64,000 nt of DNA from Dehalococcoidia bacterium (GTDB taxonomy: Bacteria; Chloroflexota; Dehalococcoidia; GIF9; AB-539-J10): NCBI GenBank assembly GCA_040766535.1, contig JAXGQG010000002.1, positions 64,521 through 128,520 of the forward strand, in the 5' to 3' direction. Shown here piece by piece: positions 49,057 to 60,297 of the stretch. Numbering within the stretch: position 1 is the first letter of the stretch; each line of letters opens with the position of its first letter. The notes beneath the pieces were generated by a model. That model made no database searches, had not been told where the DNA came from, and saw nothing but the letters and a program-made list of their open reading frames with translations. The position numbers and the translations under genes are program-made.

Positions 49057-50249
49057 AGTCCAGTCCTCACAGACCCAGCAACATCGTCCAGCCCACCAGA
49101 GTCCAGTACTGTGGACGCCAGTCCCTTCCACGATAATCGCGCTCTTGCCGCCTCAATGGCTCCAGAGTCGAAGTGCACCTCTCCAGCTAGAATCCTCCCC
49201 AATGGCGCAGGCGAGTTCCTCGCTGGAACCAGGATTGACCAGAACACCTGTGACGCCCTCTTCGATCACTTCCGGCAATCCTCCAACCCGTGTCGAAATC
49301 ACCGGTCTTCCGTAATGATAAGCGAGTGCCAATACTCCGCTCCCGGCTGCAGAAAGGTAAGGCAGCACCACGACGTCGCAACGCGCAAAGTACGAGGCAG
49401 CCTCCTGCATACTCACGTAGCGGGGCAGGATTTCGACCTGACGTTGGAGTCCAGCATTGTCAACATACGATGCCACCTCACCCACCCCCTTCCAGAACTC
49501 GCCAACAATCGACAAATGCACATCTTGACCCTTGAGATGGCACATCGCAGCCAGCACGTCCAGTCCTTTGTACGGCCTGACGAATCCGAAGAACAGCAGT
49601 TCCAGGCGCGATTGTCGGCAACGGTACTGCGGAGCAGGGAATTGATCGTAGACGGGATGAGGATGAACGGCGACGTGTGCCGAGGGATAAGCCTGAGCAA
49701 CCTGTCCCTGTCGGCACTGGTGTATGCGTCTACAAAACGATCCGCTGCAGAAAGGGCTCGCATGCTCAACATGCGTTTCCACAGAGCGTCTTCGTGTTCA
49801 ATAACGTTGTGACACAGGAATACGACTTCCACATCTTTGGCCTCAACTGGTTGGCAAGCCACGAGAAGGCAGATTGCCCAATACGCGTTCCACCATGGAA
49901 ATACAACGATAGAGGGAGAGAAGGCACGAGCGCATGAAAGCGCGTTGCGCCATGTCAACGGATTGACGGAGTCTATGACATATGTGACGCCCGGTTCGGG
50001 AAGTAACCTTCGAGACCTCCCTCTTTGTCTCCGACACCAGGATACAGCCAGCCAGGTACTGTCTGACAACGAGAGGGTCATGCAACTCGCCTGTGCACGA
50101 AAAGTACGATGAAGCATAGTCGTGTGGTGCGCAATGCCGCCACGATACGGCAACACCGGACCAATAATTACGATTCTCTTCGATTCTGAGCGAGTGTCAG
50201 AAGACTCAGTACTGACGCCGTCAGACCGTTCCCAAGAACTCACCATCAT
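49053..50249 (-). pseudogene. Glycosyltransferase family 4 (GT-B fold), several frameshifts
   Basis: N-terminal KRIVIIGPVLPYRGGIAHH lies in ORF 49413..50285. The C-terminal GT1/GT4 block LLFFGFVRPYKGLDVL...VVLPYLSAAGSGVLALAYHYGRPVISTRVGGLPEVIEEGVTGVLV lies in ORF 49153..49782. The tail is in ORF 49053..49247. The start is uncertain. Confidence 0.6.
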
Positions 50250-50382
50250 GAGCACCCCCAACCAATTGACATCGGAGAGCGTCACGATACGCTTGTCTTT
50301 GCGTCTTCGACGTCAATCTAATCAGATGCGGTGTCCGTGCATGCTACGAACTGCGCCTCTACATCAAGCGGATCGCCAGTCA

Positions 50383-51028
50383 TCAGGATGCCACCTTCAC
50401 ATGGTCCGGATGGTGGTTGGCGAGCCAATGGCTGACACCCCTGCCGCCAGCCAGCAAGCCTTTGTGTTGCGGAGACTTCTCAAACACAAACAACTGGTTG
50501 GCACCCAGAAGAAAGCGGCGATAATTCACGAGACTCAAACCGACAACATTTCCTGCCTTTCTCTACAGTCGCACGGTCCAACAAGCCTACGTGTTCTTCG
50601 CTGGCACTTCTGGCAAAGAGCCCGGATTCTCGCGCCCACCACGTACGCGCTTTGATAGGCGGGGTGAGGAGTTGTAATGACAAGGTGCGCTTCTGCGGAG
50701 TCGTTTAGGTACCCGGCGAGACGACCAACAAAGCCGCTGGCGGGCTCCCCACGTGTTCAAGTACAGCCAACAAGACAACCGTTTCGAAGTGCTCGCCATC
50801 GTCTACGGACGACAAGAATCTGTGCATCGGAGATAATGCTCGTGCCTTCTCAAGCACTGCCCGGTCGGGCTCGACTCCGAGGTACCGCGACGCAGGGAAA
50901 TGCCGGGCAAGTAGCCCGACTCCACAACCATAATCCAAGACTCGTCCAGTGAGATAAGGAATCACTTCCTTGAATCTCCGAACCCGAAGCAGGGTGGTGA
51001 AGACTCCTTCAGACCTGTACTCAGGCAT
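50383..51028 (-). pseudogene. Class I SAM-dependent methyltransferase, frameshifted
   Basis: GRVLDYGCGVGLLARHF (motif I) and FETVVLLAVLEHV lie in ORF 50705..51115. Downstream parts (SEEHVGLL...; AGNVVGLSLVNYRRFLLGANQLFVFEK) are in two other frames. The start overlaps the GT2 stop. Confidence 0.55.
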
Positions 51029-51977
51029 TGTGGCGCTCTTCGTCGTCCCGGCCCATCTTCGACCGAAAGCTAAGGTCTTCCAGCAGCCTCCTATTCGCCG
51101 CCAGCAGGTCGGCAAGGAACGCGGCCAGAATGGTTGTGAAGCCGCTCACCAGCAGGATGCTCGCCAGGATGAGTGACTGCACGTGGCCTGGTGACGGCTC
51201 GTGAGCCAGAAACCACAGATAACGTGCTCCAAGCGTTACGCCCGGAACAATGAGAACGGCGGCGATGGTGCCGAAGAAACGGAAGGGGCGGTAGATCGCG
51301 AAGATCCGGATGATGGTGAAGACGGATCGCCAGACATACAGCGGCACACTCTTCACAAGCCGCGACGGACGCAGATCGTCATTCACCCGCACCGGCACCC
51401 AGGTGATGGCCATGTTCTTCTGGCCGGCCTGGATAATCGTCTCAAGAGTATACGTATAGTCATTGAACACCATCAACTGCTGTGCCGCCGTGCGGCTGAA
51501 GGCTCGAAAGCCGCTGGGGGCATCGGGCACATCTGTATTGCTGACCCGTCGGACCACCCAACTACCCAGCTTCTGAAGCAACTTCTTGGCCGGAGAGAAA
51601 TGCGCAATCGTCTCGATCGGACGAGCCCCGACAACGATATCGGCACGCCCTTCAAGGATGGGCGCAACCAAAGCGGGGATGTCATCGGCGTTGTACTGAT
51701 TGTCAGCGTCTGTATTGACTATGACGTCTGCTCCTAGACTCAAGCACGCATCCAGTCCGGTCATGAAGGCGCGGGCAAGACCCTGATTGCGGGTGTGACG
51801 GACAACATGATCCACCCCTGCTTGTTTGGCGACTTCGACTGTGGCATCGTCGCTGCCGTCGTCGATCACGACCCACTCAACCTCATCGAACCCCCGAACG
51901 TGGCGCGGAAGGGCGGCAAGGGCAACACCCAGGGTTGCCTCTTCGCGGTAACAGGGGATCTGAATCACCAGTCTCAA
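51021..51977 (-). CDS. Glycosyltransferase family 2, polyprenyl-phosphate sugar synthase type (GtrB/ArnC/DPM1-like) with C-terminal TM helices
   Basis: 318-aa intact ORF with QIPCYREEATLG, VVIDDGSDDAT, NTDADNQY (DxD) and two C-terminal hydrophobic helices. Confidence 0.85.
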   Translation of the reverse strand: MRLVIQIPCYREEATLGVALAALPRHVRGFDEVEWVVIDDGSDDATVEVAKQAGVDHVVRHTRNQGLARAFMTGLDACLSLGADVIVNTDADNQYNADDIPALVAPILEGRADIVVGARPIETIAHFSPAKKLLQKLGSWVVRRVSNTDVPDAPSGFRAFSRTAAQQLMVFNDYTYTLETIIQAGQKNMAITWVPVRVNDDLRPSRLVKSVPLYVWRSVFTIIRIFAIYRPFRFFGTIAAVLIVPGVTLGARYLWFLAHEPSPGHVQSLILASILLVSGFTTILAAFLADLLAANRRLLEDLSFRSKMGRDDEERHNA

Positions 51978-52174
51978 GCGCTCGCCCTCATCATTGAGAA
52001 GTCCCTCTGACTGAAGTCGGATCGAAGAACGTCACGGGATTGGGTAGCCATCTCCAAGTCAACCCGTTTCACTCTCTCGCGAGAGGCGCATCGGACCGCG
52101 TTCTTCAGGGTATCCAGCATTCGTCTGGCAACACGCCCACCAAATCGTATCACTGCGCACAGCATCGTAGCAGG

Positions 52175-52681
52175 TCAGGTTCTTGAATATAGTGAGAAAC
52201 CCGTCCAACACGGCGTCGCAAGAGAAACCAAGAAGGGTGGGGGCCGGCGGCCGCCCCCCCCCAACCCACCACAATCCAGCCGCAGCAGGCACCATAGGTA
52301 GCGCGCCAGCGGTCTGCCGCTGCCGGTCCAGTAGATTCCCTGCCAATCTATGTTGGTTAAAATCGGTAATCTCGCCATCGGAGTTCACTTCGTACTCCGC
52401 CTTCATGGTTCCGGCATTCAGAAGATAGGTATTGGCACCCGTATCATCTGTCGGCACAGTACCAGCAGTAAACTCGTTTTCGGCCATAGCCGCGATAACA
52501 GCGGTCTGAACCTGGTGCATCTCCGTGTTAGCAGCTTCACCGTTGCCGTGGCCGATGAACTGGCCAACGTTCAGCACTACCACTGCGGCGATCACACCGA
52601 GTATGGCGATGACCACCAGCAACTGGATGAGCGCGTGAAGCCACGCTCGCCTGACGCGACTCTCCTTATGAGTCCTTTCAT
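52175..52681 (-). pseudogene. Type IV pilin-like protein (prepilin N-terminal cleavage/methylation domain), frame broken at the cleavage motif and again near the 3' end
   Basis: GAGGAGGG lies upstream of ATG 52681. MKGLIRRVASGERGFT is followed, after 2 extra nt, by LIQLLVVIAILGVIAAVVVLNVG in another frame (ORF 52059..52622). The 3' end is unresolved around a G9 run at about 52240-52262. Confidence 0.55.
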
Positions 52682-53165
52682 GTTTCGATCCCTCCTCTTA
52701 ATGCTCCCTGATCTATCTCTTCGCTTCACCAAGCGATGCGTTTCTGTTCGCATCGGCCTCCACAAGAGGCCACATACACTACATTGTTCCAAGAGTACAG
52801 GCAATACTAACGTCCGTCAAACAGTCGTCCTACCCGCTCCCGTTCTTTCGAACTAGCACCGCATAGGATCTTTGGTCAGATGGACCTGCATCAGGTCATA
52901 ACAGGCCTGATTCGCGGTTGCATACCTCCCAAGACCTTGTTAGAAAGGATATAGCGCCATACGTGATTATGCACAGAAACGAGAGGAATTCTCTGATAAT
53001 CCGGACGTACTGCCATCGTCGCGAGTCTCGATTCGGTTTCGATTCACGACCGGCAGTAATACGGCGTGTGTAGGATCCTGTCCGTCAAGACCCGTATCGC
53101 AACCGTGCTCAACTGGCTCAGTTGCCGGCCCGGTTAGGCGTTGCCTGGCCGACCGGTTTTCGCCC

Positions 53166-53535
53166 TCAGACGTCGCTCGCAGGCGACGTCACCCTGCCGT
53201 AGTCGTCTTCGATTCTGACGACGTCATCAAGCTCGGTGCCCGATACCTCGACCACGTCGGAATCGCTCTCCGCGATGAGCCGGTGTACCGTGCCGGGTCG
53301 CACCAACACCGCCTTGAGTCATGGGTTCAATCCTCGTGACGCCATCGCAGTGCACTTCCCAGCATCACACGACCGTCTTTGGAAACATGGTCTCCTGCTT
53401 GACCCGGTGATACTGCAGGCTGGTGCGACACCCCGACTGGAGATGGAGCACCTTCACGGCATACTGCTCCGTCTTCCGTAACAGCAACTCGCCGCCCCAC
53501 GGCTTGGGGGTCCATTCGGGAACGTGGTCCGTCAT
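53166..53535 (-). pseudogene. Cupin protein of the phosphomannose-isomerase type II C-terminal kind, about 3 frameshifts
   Basis: MTDHVPEWTPKPWGGELLLRKTEQYAVKVLHLQSGCRTSLQYHRVKQET starts at ATG 53535. The C-terminal PGTVHRLIAESDSDVVEVSGTELDDVVRIEDDYGR was recovered in another frame by manual translation. Confidence 0.55.
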
Positions 53536-53593
53536 GCTGCGGGCACCTCCGATCGCAGATCCCCCTGGCGAGGGGCAGAGAATGATAGCAGAC

Positions 53594-53938
53594 ACCGCCG
53601 CCGAAGCGGCGGAGTTCTGCGTTCTGTGTTCTGAGTTCTGGGTTCCGAGTTCAGCGGCAAGGCCGGAGTTCTGCGTTCGCCCGCGAAACGCGGGGTTGCG
53701 AGTCACGAGTGACGAGTGGCGAGTGCGCCGCCGAGGAGGCGGAGCTCTGAGTTCAGTGCGCGCGCTCGAGTCCTGAGTTCTGAGTTCTGAGTTCTGAGTT
53801 CTGCGTTCGCTACGCGATGCGCTGGAGCCGCGTGAGTCACGAGTGGCGAGTGCGCCGCCGAGGCGGCGGAGTTCTGAGTTCACCGACTAGACCAGAATTC
53901 TGCGTTCGCCCGCGAAACGCGGGGTTGCGAGTCACGAG
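53594..53938. repeat. Composite intergenic repeat block: GC hairpins plus heptamer (NGTTCTG / TGAGTTC) microsatellites
   Basis: Hairpins of the type CGCCGC-CGAA-GCGGCG occur three times (variants) and CCCGCG-AAA-CGCGGG twice. The module AGTTCTGCGTTCGCCCGCGAAACGCGGGGTTGCGAGTCACGAG is duplicated (about 53666-53710 and about 53895-53938). Heptamer runs lie at 53612-53655 and 53773-53807. Confidence 0.75.
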
Positions 53939-54078
53939 AGGAGTGCGCGGATGGAACCCGGAACCTTCAACCCGGAACCCGCCAACCCGCCACAGACCGG
54001 GGCCACGGAAGGAACGGGAATCGGCCCGCAGGCGCACCTGCTGGACAGGCGCACGCGCCACAGACACAATTCCCTGCC

Positions 54079-54854
54079 ATGCAGGCAGTAACTTCCATCG
54101 TCGCCGCGCTGTTCAGGCTTCACAGTCGGCAGCTTCCTCAACGTGTGCATCGACCGGCCGCCTGAGGCAATCGATCGTCACCGGTCGATCGCACTGCGAT
54201 GCCTGCAAGCGGCAGATCCGCAGCACAGACCTGATACCGGTACTCAGCTACCTGGCGCTGAGGGGCGCTGCCGCGACTGCGGCGCACGCATCCCCACAAG
54301 GGTGGTGCTGGTGGAGACCGCAACCGGGCTCATCTTCGCCCTCTTGGTGCTTGCGCATGAGGCTTCAGCCATGTCGGTTCTACTGGCCGTGTACGCCGCC
54401 ATTCTGCTGGTGGTGTTCGTCATCGACCTCGAACGGGGCCTCATCCTGAACAAGGTCGTCTTCCCGTCTCTGGCTTTCTCCCCCCCCCCCCCCCCCCTCG
54501 CTCGCGGCCGCGCCCGTCGCCCCGCCGTGGCTGGGCACGCTGTTCCCCATCCGCTGCTCAGCGCCGCGGCCGGCGCCGCGAGCGGCTTGCCCATTGTTCC
54601 TCATCGCAATCCTGGCGCGAGGCGGCATGGGCTAGGCGACGTCAAGTTCGCCTCTGCTGGGGCGGCTGCCGGGTTTCCGCTGGTGTTCGTGGCGTTGTTC
54701 TGGCGTGATGATCGGCGCCATCATCGCGGTCGTGCTTCTGGTCTCCGGCAAGAAGGGCCGCAAACAGGGGATCCCATTCGGGCCGTTCCTGGCGCTGGGG
54801 ACGATGGCCACCCTGCTCTGGGGGCCGCAGATACTGTCCTGGTACGTGGACTGA
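54079..54854 (+). pseudogene. pilD: Prepilin peptidase (A24 family, PilD-like), at least 5 frameshifts including one at a C18 tract
   Basis: Pieces in three frames: MQAVTSIVAALF.., GSFLNVCIDR, CDACKRQIRSTDLIPVLSYLALRG, RCRDCGARIPTRVVLVETATGLIFALL, GLGDVKFASAGAAAGFPLVFVALF and GIPFGPFLALGTMATLLWG...WYVD-stop. Confidence 0.7.
54480..54497. repeat. Homopolymeric C18 tract inside pilD
   Basis: 18 consecutive C (54480-54497), counted directly from the sequence. Translated as poly-Pro in the local frame. Confidence 0.9.
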
Positions 54855-54868
54855 TGTAGACAGAGACA

Positions 54869-55615
54869 GCTGCGCGCGGCCGAACACCACTCCCCACCAG
54901 CGGAGACTAGCCCTCGAATGGCCACACCCCAAGATGTCGTTCCACGACGCTGCGCGCGGCCGAACACCACTCCCCCACTAGCGGAGACTATGCCTCCATG
55001 CCACATCCCCACGATGTCGTTCCACGATACCGCCGTGCGCGGTCGCAATCCACTCCCCCCACTAGCAGAGACTATGCCCGAATGGCCACACCACGATGTT
55101 TGCCGCACGAGCCGCTGCGCAGCCGAACGCCAGCCCCCCAGTGAAGACAATCCCCTGATGGACATATCCCCTAATGATGTCGTTCCACGCGCTGCGCGCG
55201 GCCGAACACCACTCCCCCCACTAGCGGAGACTATGCCTCCATGCCATCCCCGCGATGTCGTTCCACGCATGCTGCGCGCGGCCGAACACCACTCCCCACT
55301 AGCGGAGACTATGCCCGAATGGCCAATTCCTCACGATGTCGTTTCACGACGCTGCGCGCGGCCGAACGCCAACCCCCCAGTAGTGAAGATAATCCTCGAT
55401 GGACATATCCCCACGATGTCGTCCCACGACGCTGCGCGCAGCCGAACACCGCTCCCCCCACTAGCGGAGACTATGCCCGAATGGCCACATCTCAGATGTT
55501 GCTCGGCACGACGCTGCGCGCGGCCGAACACCACTCCCCCCAATGGCGGAGACTATGCCTCCATGCCACATCCCCACGATGTCGTTCCAACACGCTGCGC
55601 GCGGCCGAACTCCCA
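54869..55615. repeat. Tandem array of about 9-10 copies of a 77-83-bp unit, three unit subtypes
   Basis: Units start with GCTGCGCGCGGCCGAAC at 54869, 54949, about 55031 (divergent), 55114, 55191, 55271, 55351, 55431, 55513 and 55594 (truncated). Bodies alternate between ...ACTAGCGGAGACTATGCCTCCATGCCACATCCCCACGATGTCGTTCCACG, ...ACTAGCGGAGACTATGCCCGAATGGCCAC... and ...CAGTGAAGACAATCCCCTGATGGACATATCCCC.... Confidence 0.9.
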
Positions 55616-55794
55616 CCTGACGTCGGCAGCCTCGGCGCACCTGACGGGTGCTCCCGGCTGACATGCCCAAGGAGAGATGGTGGACCCGTCAGTCACTTCC
55701 GTGGCGGGGCGCCGCGCTGCGCGCCCCTACTTCTTGAACAACGCGAGGAACCTGTCCTCGTACTGCTGGATAGACGCCCCAGCGGTTCAACCTG

Positions 55795-56400
55795 TCACCA
55801 GCTCCGAGGCGCGTGAGCGGTCGTCCTGCACTCCGCGGCAAAGAGCATCTCTATCTGCTGGCGCGCTGCCGCCGGAAGCCCTGACTCATCCACATTCAGA
55901 AGCCCATGGCGCTGGAAGTCCGAGTAGTTGCCTCCAGCTGCGCGCCGGGTGAGGTCGTAGATGAACATCATCACCGCAAGGTCCCATGCCTCCTCCATCC
56001 CCCGGATGATGGCGCTGAGCGGCCGGTCCTCCGATTCAAGCATCGAGTTCAGGTTGCCGATGACCACGCCAAGCGGCTCCGACACCAGGTTCATGGAGTG
56101 GGGTTCATTGCGGTAGGAATAGAAGATGCCCGGCTCATGCGGGTTCTGCTGCGCCATCATGCCCAGGAAGCGGCGGGCGCTCTCACTGAAGCCCTCAACG
56201 TGCAGCAGGTAGTATGGAGTGACGATGCGAGGCCGCTCCGCCAGCACCTTGCCTTCACGCACGGCGCTCATCTGCTCCGAGAGTTCGGTGACCACGTAGT
56301 ACTCCATCGTGGTGCTGCCGAAGGTGGCAAGCTGGCGCTTGGGCGCGCGGACAAGCTCCGTCTTGCGCATCGCTTCCAGGATCCTCTCGTCCATTTCCAT
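55795..56400 (-). CDS. Hypothetical protein (about 200 aa), no family recognised
   Basis: ATG 56400 lies within ORF 55795..56925, after GGGAGAG. Composition is coding-like from MEMDERILEAMRK onward. The upstream part of the ORF is R/G/P-rich and overlaps the MBL gene region. Confidence 0.5.
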   Translation of the reverse strand: MEMDERILEAMRKTELVRAPKRQLATFGSTTMEYYVVTELSEQMSAVREGKVLAERPRIVTPYYLLHVEGFSESARRFLGMMAQQNPHEPGIFYSYRNEPHSMNLVSEPLGVVIGNLNSMLESEDRPLSAIIRGMEEAWDLAVMMFIYDLTRRAAGGNYSDFQRHGLLNVDESGLPAAARQQIEMLFAAECRTTAHAPRSW

Positions 56401-56423
56401 AGTGGCTCTCCCGGACGGTGGAC

Positions 56424-57142
56424 CTAGAAGAACATGCGAACCATCTGGAAGTTCCGGATCACGTTGTCTCTGCCCGAGACCAGCGGACCGGCCATGCTGC
56501 TGTGGCCAGGCAGGATGTACTCGATATCCAGCTCGGAGAGCCGGCTGATGCTCTCCTTCATCCGGCTGATGCTGCCGCCCACGAAATCCATCCGTCCGAT
56601 GCTTCCCGGAAACACCATCACCGCTCACCAGTACTCCGACTCCGGCAGATAGATGCAGGCGCATCCGGGGGAATGCCCGGGCGTGATGAGTATCTCCATC
56701 CGGCATCCGTCGCAGTTGACCGCGTTGAGCGGCCCCTCCTGCAGCAGGATAGTCGGCTTGGTGGCAGGCAGCGTACCGAAAGAACCATAGAACGGATCTC
56801 CACCCCAGTGAGAAACTCATGTTCCGGTACGGAAAGGGCGACGCCAGCGCCAGTGCGGCGCACCACGTCGTCCACCGCCTGGAAGTGATCCGGATGGCTG
56901 TGAGTCCCGAACACCAGACCCACATCCTCCAGCCTCAGGCCATCCGCGGACATCGCCTGCACCAGGGAGTCCAGCGGCCGTTCTCCCATCGCGCCATACG
57001 TCATGCCGGGGTCGACGAGCATATGGGCTTCCGGTCTGTCCAGCGCGTTGGCGAGCACCACGGAACTGGAGTTGATGCCCTGACCAACCCAGAGGTAGAA
57101 GAACACCCCTTCGGTTATCTCGGCGGACCTGTGCAACACCAT
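56424..57142 (-). pseudogene. MBL-fold metallo-hydrolase, 2-3 frameshifts
   Basis: ATG 57142 gives MVLHRSAEITEGVFFYLW... with the HxHxDH motif (GTHSHPDH). The middle part (ILITPGHSPG) and the C-terminal part (ORF 56424..56621, YILPGHS) are in other frames. Confidence 0.7.
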
Positions 57143-57284
57143 TGGCTCTCCCCGAAGCGACGGATGCGCCGCGATTCGCAGACGATCCGTTCGGGTATTA
57201 TAGGTGAAAGCGCGGCAGCGTCGAACGAAGCAGGGTAGAGCCGTTCCGCTGCTGCCGGACCGCGCAACCACCGTCAGGCCACAG

Positions 57285-57544
57285 GAGCGAACTCCGCGTC
57301 CGCCCGTTGGGTTTCCCTGCATGACCGCCATCCGGCCGTGGGCGAGATGTATCTCGCCCGCAGACCATGCCCACAGAGCCGCTGGACTGTCACCACCCGA
57401 CCACACATCGCCACCATCCGGCCGTAGGCAAGACACATCTCGCCCACACCATGCCTGCAGAGCCGCTGGACTGCCACTGTCGCCACGGTCCGTCCACGCA
57501 CCGACACCTTCCGGCCGTAGGGGCGGACCCCGCGTCCGCCCGCC
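57285..57544 (+). repeat. Upstream REP-like hairpin cluster (GTAG/GTGG-hairpin on the + strand), arranged in about 85-95-bp units
   Basis: GTGGGCGAGATGTATCTCGCCC (57338-57359), GTAGGCAAGACACATCTCGCCC (57424-57445) and GTAGGGGCGGACCCCGCGTCCGCCCGCC (57517-57544). Each is preceded by C(A/T)TCCGGCC, and the first two are followed by CATGCC.CAGAGCCGCTGGACTG. Confidence 0.7.
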
Positions 57545-57620
57545 ATACACATCACCCGTCTCCTGAGAACACATAACGAAGAGATCTCCAATCGTCGCCG
57601 GCGGTGTACAATCCTGCGCA

Positions 57621-58140
57621 GTGAAGGACGCAAGCCTCCCCACACGGCATATCCTCCGTCTGCGAGGATACGATTACTCAACGCCAGGTGCCTGGCTTCG
57701 TCACACTGTGCGCTGAAGACCACAGGTGTGACTTCGGTGAAGTCAAAGACGACATTGTCGCCCTGACACCACTGGGACACATCATCCACAACACCTGGGT
57801 GGAGGCCTGTTCCTTCTGCACCGGAGTCAGCGCGGACGCGTTCGTGGTGATGCCCAACCACCTCCATGCCATCGTGCTTCTGCACAACGACACCACCAAC
57901 CGCAACGATGGCCGAGATGGGACCACGGGGCTCTCTTCCTTCATACGCCGATTCAAGACCCTCAGCACCTTCCGCGTCGTGCGGACAGCGGTGTGCGATG
58001 GAAGGTGCTACGACGCGGGCGCTTGTGGCAGAGGTCGTACTACGAGCACGTCATACGAGACGATTCCTCCCTGAGCGCGTTCGTGACTATAACATCGCAT
58101 CGAATCCGCTCAGATGGTCGCTTGACCGCGAGAACCCGGA
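57621..58140 (+). pseudogene. REP-associated tyrosine transposase (RAYT, IS200/IS605-like Y1 HUH transposase), at least 3 frameshifts
   Basis: ILRLRGYDYSTPGAW, then a shift to FVTLCAEDHRCDFGEVKDDIVALTPLGHIIHNTW...FVVMPNHLHAIVLL (HUH). A further shift gives LWQRSYYEHVIRDDSSLSA, and another gives VRDYNIASNPLRWSLDRENPES. The start (GTG 57621) and the end are approximate. Confidence 0.7.
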
Positions 58141-58228
58141 GTCCGCGGACACACCTCTCGGCTATCCGCTGAAGCGGCGGAACAGTGGATGGTCTGAGAT
58201 GACACGGACGAGGCCCCCGACGGTGACG

Positions 58229-58744
58229 GCGGGCGGACGCAGAGGTCCGCTCCTACAACAGCACTTGTGTTCCGGCCGCGATTCCGGGTCAGGAAACACC
58301 TCCGCTGCAACTGGAGACTAACGCCGATGCCCGCGGGTTCACGCGATTCACAGACACCGCACCCGCGTCGTTCCGGACGGCGGAGATGTATCTCGCCCCT
58401 ACCAACGCAGGCAGCCGACCGATTCCGGGTGTGCGACGCACCTCACCTATCAAAGCTGCGTGATTCTAGACGGCGGCGGACGCAGAGGTCCGCACCCTAC
58501 AGAGGAATCGACAGACCAAAGGCCAGACAGCAACAACGGTGGGCGTCCGACGGTACGACGGCGGGCGATGTATCCTGCCCTCACGACAATACAACGACAG
58601 TGGGCTGAAACGGCGATTGTGCGGCAGGAACGGGACAATGTAATTCCCGCTGAACCTGAAAACCGATGCCAGCGGGTTCATGCGATTCACAAACACCGCA
58701 CCCGCGTTGTTCCGGACGGCGGGCGAGATGTATCTCGCCCCTAC
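58229..58744 (-). repeat. Downstream REP-like hairpin cluster (GTAG-hairpin on the - strand), two hairpin types
   Basis: On the + strand the elements end in CCTAC or CCCTAC. Type 2, GCGGAC-GCAGAG-GTCCGC, lies at 58233-58250 and 58476-58493. Type 1, (G)GGCGAGATGTATCTCGCCCCTAC, lies at about 58376-58402 and 58718-58744. A degenerate copy is at about 58556-58584. A longer unit of about 80 bp (GATGCC.GCGGGTTCA.GCGATTCACA.ACACCGCACCCGCGT.GTTCCGGACGGC...) is duplicated at about 58325 and about 58666. Confidence 0.7.
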
Positions 58745-58886
58745 AACAGAGGCGCGTTGGTGTGTAGGTCGTCCACCTCCCATTGCAGCGGAGCTAGTCT
58801 TCCGAGCTCCCGGTTTTCGGTCCCCACTTGAAACCGCATGGCAAGGTGGTACACTAGCGCACAGGTAACGGGACGTTTGACTGGAG

Positions 58887-59573
58887 GTGGCTACAGTGGC
58901 CAAGGTGTTCATCGTCGATGAGCAGCCCATGTACAGACAGGGTATCCGGGCCGCGCTTGCCAGGACACGGGACGTGGAGATCGCCGGCGATGCAGATCTG
59001 AACGACGACGTACTCACGGCGATCGATGCGCAGATGCCCGACGTGGTCGTTCTCGGTGCCGATGTGGCATTCACCGAGAGTCTCCGCATCTGCAGGGCCA
59101 TCAAGCAGCGGGAGCCTTCCGTGTCCATCATCATCCTTTCTGGCGACGGCCACCAGGACGAGCAGGTATTCCAGGCCATCAGGGCGCAAGCCTCCGGCTT
59201 CCACGGCCGCAACGTGAATCCCGACGATCTGGCCAAATCCATTGCGAGGTGCGCGCGCGGCGAGCACCCGATCAACGAGACCATGGCCACCCACCCCCGC
59301 GTGGCGGAACAGATACTGGAGCAATTCCAGGAACTCTCCCGCGAGAGGGAGACGGCGAGCTTCATGTCTCCCCTGACCCCGAAAGAAATGGAAGTGCTCA
59401 GATACATGGCCGAGGGCTGCTTGAACAAGCAGATCGCGGACAAGCTGGATGTGACCGAGCAGACGGTGAAGAACCACATCACGTCCATCCTGCGGAAGCT
59501 CAACGCCAACGCCCGCACCCAGGCCGTGGTCATCGCCATCAAGAAGGGGCTGGTGACGCTTTCGTCCGATTAG
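58887..59573 (+). CDS. LuxR/NarL-family response regulator with atypical (probably non-phosphorylatable) receiver domain
   Basis: C-terminal HTH_LuxR: LTPKEMEVLRYMAEGCLNKQIADKLDVTEQTVKNHITSILRKL. The receiver fold is recognisable, but the acceptor position reads PDVVVLGADVAF (Gly where NarL has Asp59) and the conserved Lys position reads GFHGRN. GTG 58896 is an alternative start. Confidence 0.85.
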   Translation: MATVAKVFIVDEQPMYRQGIRAALARTRDVEIAGDADLNDDVLTAIDAQMPDVVVLGADVAFTESLRICRAIKQREPSVSIIILSGDGHQDEQVFQAIRAQASGFHGRNVNPDDLAKSIARCARGEHPINETMATHPRVAEQILEQFQELSRERETASFMSPLTPKEMEVLRYMAEGCLNKQIADKLDVTEQTVKNHITSILRKLNANARTQAVVIAIKKGLVTLSSD

Positions 59574-59725
59574 GACCTGCCCCCGCCCTTTCACCACCAC
59601 GGCTCCTTCGCTGTGCCTGCAGGCAGGCGCGACGGGGAACCAGACGACTAATTGCATTCGAGGCCGGCAGCCACCACCGATTCCGGGTAGGCAGCGTGGC
59701 TCACATCCCAGGTACGCGTCATTCG

Positions 59726-59999
59726 AGGCGGCGGGCGAGATGTATCTCGCCCCTACGACAAGGGCGGGAGATGCGCCGATCGTCCAGCCGCCACGGGGCA
59801 ATGAGCTTCCAATCAGACAGGAAGTCGCTGCCGATGCCAGGGAGTCGATCGCATTCACCAACGCCGTGCCCGCGTCCTGCCAGCCGTCGGGCGGACGCAG
59901 AGGTCCGCCCCAACAACATAACTTGTCCTACCCGGCAATTCCGTCAACAAACGCCTCAGCGTCATTCGTGACGGCGGGCGAGATGTGTCTCGCCCCTAC
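59726..59999 (-). repeat. Third REP-like hairpin group (same families, - orientation)
   Basis: GGGCGAGATGTATCTCGCCCCTAC (59733-59756), GGGCGGACGCAGAGGTCCGCCCCAAC (about 59889-59914) and GGGCGAGATGTGTCTCGCCCCTAC (59976-59999). Confidence 0.7.
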
Positions 60000-60297
60000 C
60001 CATGCAGGCAGGCGCTGAAGCGAGGCGGCGGATCCGCTGGACATCGCTCGCCACCGGACTGTGTCCCAGTGCGCCGATGAACTTGACAGTTGTAACAGCA
60101 CACGTTGACGCACCATCATACGTATGGTAGTCTAGAAACACCATGGGCGTGAGTGCGGCAGCTCGTAGCCTGCGCCTGCACATACTCGTTGCTCTGCAGA
60201 CCCAGAACCCCGCGAAGAAAAATCCCCACAATCGTTTACCTTCCCTGTTCTGCCGCGTTGTTAGTAGTGAGCCACATCCTAAGGAGGTCTGTTACAC

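Follow-up and report, generated by a model that had tools for sequence, protein, structure and literature searches.

The pilD locus and its neighbourhood

A tandem array occupies positions 54869-55615 of the window, by which we mean the whole stretch of 64,000 nt of contig C12 that was analysed. The array consists of nine units of 78-82 bp and a 22-bp stub, and it lies between the 3' ends of the prepilin peptidase gene pilD and of a converging conserved hypothetical gene. The features around and across it are as follows.

54079..54854, + strand: pilD (prepilin peptidase), broken or mis-assembled, with at least eight frame changes that use all three frames
54855..54868, + strand: linker, holding the ancestral pilD stop codon TAG (54857-59) and then 9 nt up to the first 12-mer
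54918..55661, + strand: open frame of 247 aa that crosses the array and shares its phase with the pilD 3' end; not considered a gene
55616..55705, + strand: non-repeated tail of 90 nt, 87% identical to the sister contig L079 only
55706..55727, + strand: native GC-rich hairpin GGGGCGC-CGCGCTGC-GCGCCCC, followed by the T-rich TACTTCTT on the + strand
55727..56400, - strand: converging conserved hypothetical gene, 223 aa in relatives, belonging to no Pfam family and always preceded by an MBL-fold gene

The pilD gene of the window contains a run of 18 C residues (54480-54497), and a 1-nt deletion at 54848 brings a TGA codon (54852-54) into frame. Intact homologues of 258 aa with a Peptidase_A24 domain are present in eight related contigs (L080, L083, L085, L087, L091, L095, L097 and L098). 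In comparison with the 89%-identical gene of contig L078, the window copy differs mostly by deletions of 1-2 nt and by a 16-nt insertion in the C-run. The window pilD is thus either a decaying gene or a local consensus error. The converging gene has a frame break near 55800-55830, and its open reading frame ends at 55795. Since this C-terminal break shortens the open frame, the true stop codon is that at 55727-29. An intact 223-aa version of the gene, which is 98% identical, is present in other samples (P0002). The MBL-fold gene contains one frame break near 56801; together, the two genes fill positions 55727-57142. Frame changes affect about 10 of the 85 genes of the contig and are absent from the 32 kb upstream of the window, which means that the breaks are patchy along the contig. 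Homology to proteins of the congener G003 switches frame in five further stretches of C12 (259-1358, 38396-39969, 41456-43943, 67262-68667 and 71818-73303 in window coordinates).

The existence of the array and its subtype structure can be regarded as safe, whereas unit lengths (for instance, C-runs of 4-6), copy number and small indels are uncertain; for the latter two, this is because the adjacent pilD gene has so many frame breaks. Contig C12 is collinear with contig C5 of G003 across its full 144 kb, and the array insert is therefore not a chimeric join. The gap between pilD and the converging gene, which a preliminary description of this DNA had put at 940 bp, measures about 870 bp from one stop codon to the other. 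The distance of about 1.7 kb to the REP/RAYT block had been given correctly. This block (57235-58824) is absent from all ten same-genus representatives, in which the MBL-fold gene adjoins a NarL-type regulator; the closer contigs L076 and L079 have it.

The 3' half of the native hairpin (55716-55727, GCTGCGCGCCCC) is the 12-mer that also bounds the repeat units. It directly adjoins the converging gene's stop codon, which overlaps the last base of the hairpin. A terminator scan scored the hairpin together with TACTTCTT as terminator-like, and a promoter scan detected no promoter within the array. As the array is located between the pilD stop codon and this presumptive terminator, it would be part of the pilD 3' UTR if pilD is transcribed. 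The linker upstream of the array (GATGT, 11 nt, GCTGCG) mirrors the unit junction in length. The tail downstream has no match outside L079 and no similarity to the flanks.

Structure of the array

Tandem Repeats Finder detected the array at 54869-55610 with a period of 80, 9.2 copies, 75% matches, 8% indels and a score of 761, and thereby bore out the tandem array of about 80 bp that had been noticed behind pilD. Higher periods were found at 159 and 322 bp. The units, all of which share one orientation, were cut at the recurring GCTGCGCGCGGCCGAAC.

u1, 54869-54948, + strand: subtype C, 80 bp
u2, 54949-55030, + strand: subtype B, 82 bp
u3, 55031-55112, + strand: degenerate C, 82 bp
u4, 55113-55190, + strand: subtype D, 78 bp
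u5, 55191-55270, + strand: subtype B, 80 bp
u6, 55271-55350, + strand: subtype C, 80 bp
u7, 55351-55430, + strand: subtype D, 80 bp
u8, 55431-55512, + strand: subtype C, 82 bp
u9, 55513-55593, + strand: subtype B, 81 bp
u10, 55594-55615, + strand: stub of a partial unit

Each unit starts with the 12-mer GCTGCGCGCGGC, continues with CGAACACC, a C-run of 4-6 and a variable centre, and ends with a small hairpin, GTCGT-NNN-ACGAC. At the unit junction, this hairpin is directly followed by the self-complementary GCUGCGCGCGGCC, and the junction stretch reads GATGTCGTTCCACGACGCTGCGCGCGGCC. The two ends are less uniform than had been proposed. The opening GCTGCGCGCGGCCGAAC, said to be common to all units, is exact in seven of the ten unit starts, carries one substitution in another and is degenerate in u3 and u4. 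Only u1 has the exact ending GATGTCGTTCCACGAC with the hairpin GTCGT-TCC-ACGAC; u2, u4-u7 and u9 come close to it, and u3 and u8 have altered versions.

The proposal of three recurring centre variants was confirmed by pairwise identities. The subtype B units (u2, u5 and u9) are 90-93% identical to each other, the subtype C units (u1, u6 and u8) 82-88%, with u3 as a degenerate member, and the two subtype D units (u4 and u7) 81%. Across the whole array, units differ from each other by 7-36%, and subtype-specific substitutions are common to several units. The subtypes are arranged in the order C B C D B C D C B, in which B-C-D occurs twice. Since the block u2-u4 is 83% identical to u5-u7, a block of three units of about 240 bp must have been duplicated.

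The array is the largest tandem repeat of the 1.53-Mb genome, which is 72% complete. A comparison of the unit with the rest of this genome, as the preliminary description had proposed, located it by BLAST and by a profile HMM only at C12:119389-120133. The boundary 12-mer has two further exact copies in the genome, which is about the number expected by chance; thus, it is not a dispersed element. The only other minisatellite of the genome lies outside the window (contig C8:15390-15780) and has a period of 110 bp and 3.5 copies. It consists of four tandem tiny genes, each with a strong GGAGGAG ribosome-binding site, an 18-aa Lys/Pro-rich ORF (MA(Q/S)KGQPAKPAPKPGAKK*) and a hairpin, and there is an indel in one copy.

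The same spacer in related lineages

The unit is absent from 40 genomes of relatives searched by BLAST, and none of the species-representative genomes carries it. A scan of 202 genomes of the order with the junction pattern (up to three mismatches) yielded one chance match only, a GTDB-wide pattern scan 37 chance matches in unrelated high-GC genomes, none of which could be aligned to the array, and a pattern scan of JGI metagenomes one chance match. In ten genomes of the same genus, pilD and the converging gene are 14-45 bp apart, and the spacer contains a short GC-rich hairpin and no unit. The view of an orphan array without relatives was overturned when close homologues of the converging gene were used to find further spacers and the respective contigs were fetched. 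In the converging gene, these metagenome contigs are 81-92% identical to the window, and the congeners 68-78%. The spacers have the following forms.

L076-78, 22 bp: no unit; one degenerate 12-mer (GCTACGAGCAGC)
L080-82, 102 bp: GCTGCGCGCGGC, 68 nt and again GCTGCGCGCGGC; the interior aligns end to end with a window unit and ends in TTCGT-TGC-ACGAA
L083/84, 99 bp: boundaries of the L080 type; interior unrelated, though the flanks are 91% identical to L080
L085/86, 177 bp: left 12-mer degenerate (8/12), right copy missing; a short stretch is similar to the unit's first half
L091-94, 84 bp: bounded by the 12-mer GCTGCGCGCGGC
L095/96, 82 bp: no recognisable 12-mer
L087-90, 217 bp: 12-mer boundaries; in the interior, the final ~45 nt of the converging gene and the 12-mer recur as a degenerate copy (72%, E 2e-4)
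L098-103, 231 bp: three exact 12-mers; one 80-bp unit (unit HMM, E 6.8e-5)
L097 (ENA ERZ27315072), 406 bp: 3.2 units, A-B-A-B'; two match the unit HMM at E 3.6e-10 and 1.8e-9
L079 (ENA ERZ3460579), at a contig end: tail 87% identical, a u9-like unit and the start of a further unit (at least 1.5 units)

In the gene tree, L079 is the sister of the window. Its unit, the orthologue of u9, differs from u9 at three positions and shares the private AATGG of u9. The end of the further unit of L079 is canonical where the window u8 is altered. The copy number at the pilD spacer therefore varies by lineage from zero (L076-78) through one (L080-82, L098-103), at least 1.5 (L079) and 3.2 (L097) to 9.2 in the window. 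The array exists in at least two further independent assemblies (L079 and L097) with differing composition. Closer relatives have zero to three copies of the spacer module, and the window array is an expansion of this module that is specific to its lineage.

Six of the eight enlarged spacer forms are bounded by two copies of GCTGCGCGCGGC, of which the right-hand one touches the stop codon of the converging gene. The interiors show no similarity to the flanks or between lineages, except for the pairs window-L079 and L087-L091. The boundaries and the junction are conserved, while the interiors turn over. As L080 and L083 have unrelated interiors between 91% identical flanks, simple point divergence is not sufficient, and either replacement or the differential survival of units of an older array is needed. 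The closest complete spacer (L076-78) is free of units and more distant lineages have them, so that the history of the locus needs either loss or parallel gains. Two side observations concern the interiors. The interiors of about 66 nt in L080 and L083 are wholly unrelated despite the shared boundary 12-mers, which resembles the replacement of a cassette. Moreover, the 231-bp spacer exists as two alleles, one in L101 and one in L098-L100 and L102. The two agree fully in the first unit and in the downstream protein, and about ten substitutions between them are concentrated in 60 nt of the second interior.

Conservation and possible role of the junction

The L097 units agree with the window at all of their last 27 nt (27/27) and at 92% of their first 25 nt, whereas the identity at third codon positions of the adjacent gene is only 61%. 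L098 likewise retains the junction GATGTCGTTNCACGAC-GCTGCGCGCGGCC, and L080 does so with a compensated stem. Near-neutral sites differ far more between lineages than the junction does, which makes some cis role in the pilD-sense transcript plausible. The small hairpin of 5-6 bp is retained in 10-11 of the 15 units that were examined, with seven different loops. Changes in it include one double change from G-C to U-A in L080 and G.U variants in u2, u3 and u8; the G.U pairs work on the + strand only.

The boundary 12-mers pair with each other in the minimum-energy folds of the pilD-sense RNA of the L080, L091, L087 and L098 spacers and also within the array, and the predicted stems of the spacers enclose loops of 50-190 nt. 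In L083, in L087 and in the last copy of the window, the second 12-mer has been changed in a way that would break the proposed stem; thus, covariation does not support this stem. RNAalifold predicted no unit-wide consensus fold on either strand (weak energies of -4 and -10 kcal/mol, 0-1 covarying pairs). Folds of the whole array had z values of about -2.7 for either strand, a figure that carries no information in the case of a repeat. Rfam 15 had no match at E <= 1 over 50000-60000, and ARAGORN detected no tRNA in the window.

The strong conservation of the junction and the retention of the small hairpin argue that the module is not merely neutral. Several observations argue against a required function: the ten congeners and L076-78 manage without any unit, the interiors are replaced wholesale, the changes in the right-hand 12-mer of L083, L087 and the window would disrupt the stem, and pilD looks defective in the window. 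By analogy with REP clusters, which reportedly act in this way, we infer that the junction may be a cis element at the 3' end of the pilD-sense transcript that serves termination or protection. The extra copies of the unit would then be by-products of a repeat-prone architecture and not an adaptation.

Alternative explanations

It is highly improbable that the array is an assembly artefact, that is, a spurious expansion or a chimeric insertion. The MAG is only 72% complete, frame changes are frequent in the contig and above all in pilD, and many contigs of relatives break near the locus. However, assemblers do not invent units that differ by 7-36% and share subtype-specific substitutions, homologous units occupy the same site in the independent assemblies L079 and L097, and the flanks are collinear with those of relatives. 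If the local indels are sequencing errors, the frame inconsistencies could also conceal a proline-rich repeat protein encoded by the 247-aa frame (54918-55661). Only this frame runs through the whole array without a stop codon. It shares its phase with the 3' end of pilD, and indels of 1-2 nt are locally frequent, as pilD illustrates. Moreover, the spacings of the central motif GCGGAGACTATGCC (81, 84, 159, 78 and 162 bp) are multiples of three in five of six intervals, which is a post-hoc observation. Nevertheless, the repeat protein is largely refuted and, in our estimate, extremely improbable, as the preliminary description had already argued. A search of 5.8 billion protein clusters and an exhaustive scoring of 1.84 billion representatives recovered no relative, only the query itself, and exact-protein look-ups of the array ORF gave no match; the same was true of such look-ups with the converging gene of the window. 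The ORFs that cross the array belong to no Pfam family, and the 247-aa frame has neither a ribosome-binding site nor a signal peptide. The permutation of the unit order produced an equally long open frame in 6% of the shuffles (p = 0.06). The best-conserved DNA block of the unit, in its 5' part, is read by the frame as RCARPN, AARGR or LRAAE in different units; thus, conservation acts at the level of the DNA and not of the protein. Finally, the orthologous spacers of relatives comprise 22-231 bp with unrelated interiors, and no gene was called there. The array is almost certainly not CRISPR-like, nor is it the remnant of a mobile element (REP/BIME, MITE or IS fragment). Such readings draw on the conserved ends and variable centres that emerge when lineages are compared, and on the RAYT/REP block 1.7 kb away. 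Within the array, however, the centres are variants of one sequence that fall into three recurring, related subtypes and are no unique spacers, so that a CRISPR array can be dismissed, in agreement with the preliminary description. None of the ORFs within about 3 kb of the array is Cas-like by comparison with Pfam. The array had no blastn match in plasmid and phage collections, and of five patterns scanned against IMG/VR, one returned a single match that could not be aligned to the array and the other four found nothing. The unit is confined to one locus and lacks terminal inverted repeats, the REP hairpin beside the RAYT gene (GGGCGAGATGTATCTCGCCC) is unrelated to it, and L080 and L098 have units but no RAYT gene in the contig.

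Two further explanations assign a function to the repeated motifs. The near-palindromic 12-mer, the GTCGT-N3-ACGAC hairpin or both could be putative operators of a dimeric protein that recur every ~80 bp in a DNA-level scaffold, as in plasmid centromere repeats. The palindromic match of the 12-mer (10/12), its status as the best-conserved element in all lineages and the regular spacing would fit such a scaffold, and u6 holds GTTTCACG, which we take to be a half-site-like match to the parS consensus. We consider the scaffold very unlikely, because no partition, regulator or recombinase gene that is specific to array-bearing lineages adjoins the locus, the 12-mer occurs elsewhere in the genome only about as often as expected by chance, and the copy number varies from zero to nine among close relatives that share the neighbouring genes. 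Functional RNA modules are an unlikely explanation as well, but one with more in its favour. In this case, a precursor derived from the pilD-sense 3' UTR would be a stability or termination device or would be processed to small RNAs whose centres recognise targets. The junction conserved at 27/27 nt against 61% at third positions, the small hairpin retained with seven loops and a G-C to U-A double change, the G.U pairing of this hairpin and of the 12-mers on the + strand only and the position of the array upstream of a putative + strand terminator are all consistent with RNA modules. On the other hand, neither Rfam nor RNAalifold provided support, the unit centres are complementary to nothing in the genome, the unit-free L076-78 and ten congeners do well, and the window pilD itself looks broken. 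A stricter version of the idea holds that the junction (the hairpin, GCUGCGCGCGGCC and about 25 nt on each side) would act in cis, as an RNA element under selection, in the pilD-sense 3' UTR of a Dehalococcoidia sub-clade, and that arrays with rapidly replaced centres would be an amplifiable 3'-end module instead of neutral junk. We regard this version as doubtful. If it were true, the element would represent a new type of module for mRNA protection, for the insulation of converging transcripts or for small RNAs with variable centres.

Origin and growth of the array

The array is probably a genuine non-coding minisatellite that has arisen and grown in place. It is real, unique to its locus in the 72%-complete genome and absent from congeners, and homologous modules are found at the same site elsewhere. 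The growth of such modules at one spacer across lineages also supports the satellite reading, which the preliminary description had listed among its options. The ancestral state was probably a short GC-rich hairpin spacer of 14-45 bp between the 3' ends of pilD and the converging gene. In the sub-clade of the window MAG, a spacer bounded by two copies of GCTGCGCGCGGC would have been the seed. The 12-mer is identical to its own reverse complement at 10 of 12 positions, and two copies are therefore direct and inverted repeats at once. As inverted repeats, they could form a 12-bp stem with two G.U pairs in the pilD-sense RNA; as direct repeats, they could misalign in replication or recombination and thereby duplicate or delete the sequence between them. 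A terminator-type stem with misaligning arms may thus have seeded the first duplication, and unequal exchange may then have enlarged the array. In the window lineage, growth would have included the duplication of the B-C-D block (~240 bp), which is typical of unequal exchange. We infer slippage or unequal exchange as the mechanism of growth, and the duplicated gene end in L087, the A-B-A-B' order in L097 and the B-C-D duplication in the window fit this mechanism.

By itself, the array is one more bacterial minisatellite and thus an ordinary kind of repeat. The unusual point is that related metagenome lineages preserve the states with zero, one, three and nine units of one locus. The locus may therefore serve as a worked example of how a terminator-type hairpin with self-complementary arms, which are also direct repeats, can become a tandem array. 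It would also be a ready strain marker for this uncultured group of Dehalococcoidia. Moreover, it poses the question why the interiors are exchanged completely while the junction has changed far less than near-neutral sites.

Comparison with known repeat systems

Intrinsic (Rho-independent) bidirectional terminators resemble the locus in the short GC-rich hairpin that is present in relatives and, with its T-rich run, at 55706-55727 of the window. However, the predicted 'loop' between the arms comprises 50-190 nt in relatives and a nine-unit array here, which is far outside the norm for terminators. CRISPR arrays are likewise periodic, with a conserved and a variable part in each period, and 80 bp is within the CRISPR range. 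In contrast to them, the array has no unique spacers, virus matches or leader, its repeats carry indels, and in several species it occupies a constant position between the same two genes.

The REP/BIME clusters at the 3' ends of enterobacterial genes share with the array the clustering of GC-rich palindromes between converging genes and the location in a 3' UTR, which is predicted in the case of the array. Work by Newbury et al. from 1987 is said to have shown that REP clusters protect the upstream mRNA from 3' exonucleases. REPs are hairpins of 20-40 nt that are spread over the genome by RAYT transposases, alternate in orientation and have a GTAG-type cleavage tag. The array units, by contrast, measure 80 bp, have one orientation and occupy one locus, and the local RAYT-associated REPs differ from them in sequence; the array thus does not belong to the REPs.

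Bacterial intergenic minisatellites or VNTRs, such as the MIRU and ETR loci of Mycobacterium tuberculosis, also consist of intergenic head-to-tail units of tens of bp. Their copy number varies between related lineages through slippage or unequal exchange, and no mobility genes are needed. MIRUs form a family that is dispersed over about 40 loci, often inside operons and with short overlapping ORFs. In contrast, the array unit was found at a single locus between converging genes (in a genome that is 72% complete) and not at many loci. The array also differs from MIRUs in its three-unit higher-order pattern, and its unit can be traced to a self-complementary hairpin arm. The general traits of minisatellites, which have been counted among small variable segments (PMC2884548), are all present in the array: it is non-coding, it is built of head-to-tail units in the range of ~10-100 bp, and its copy number differs between lineages.
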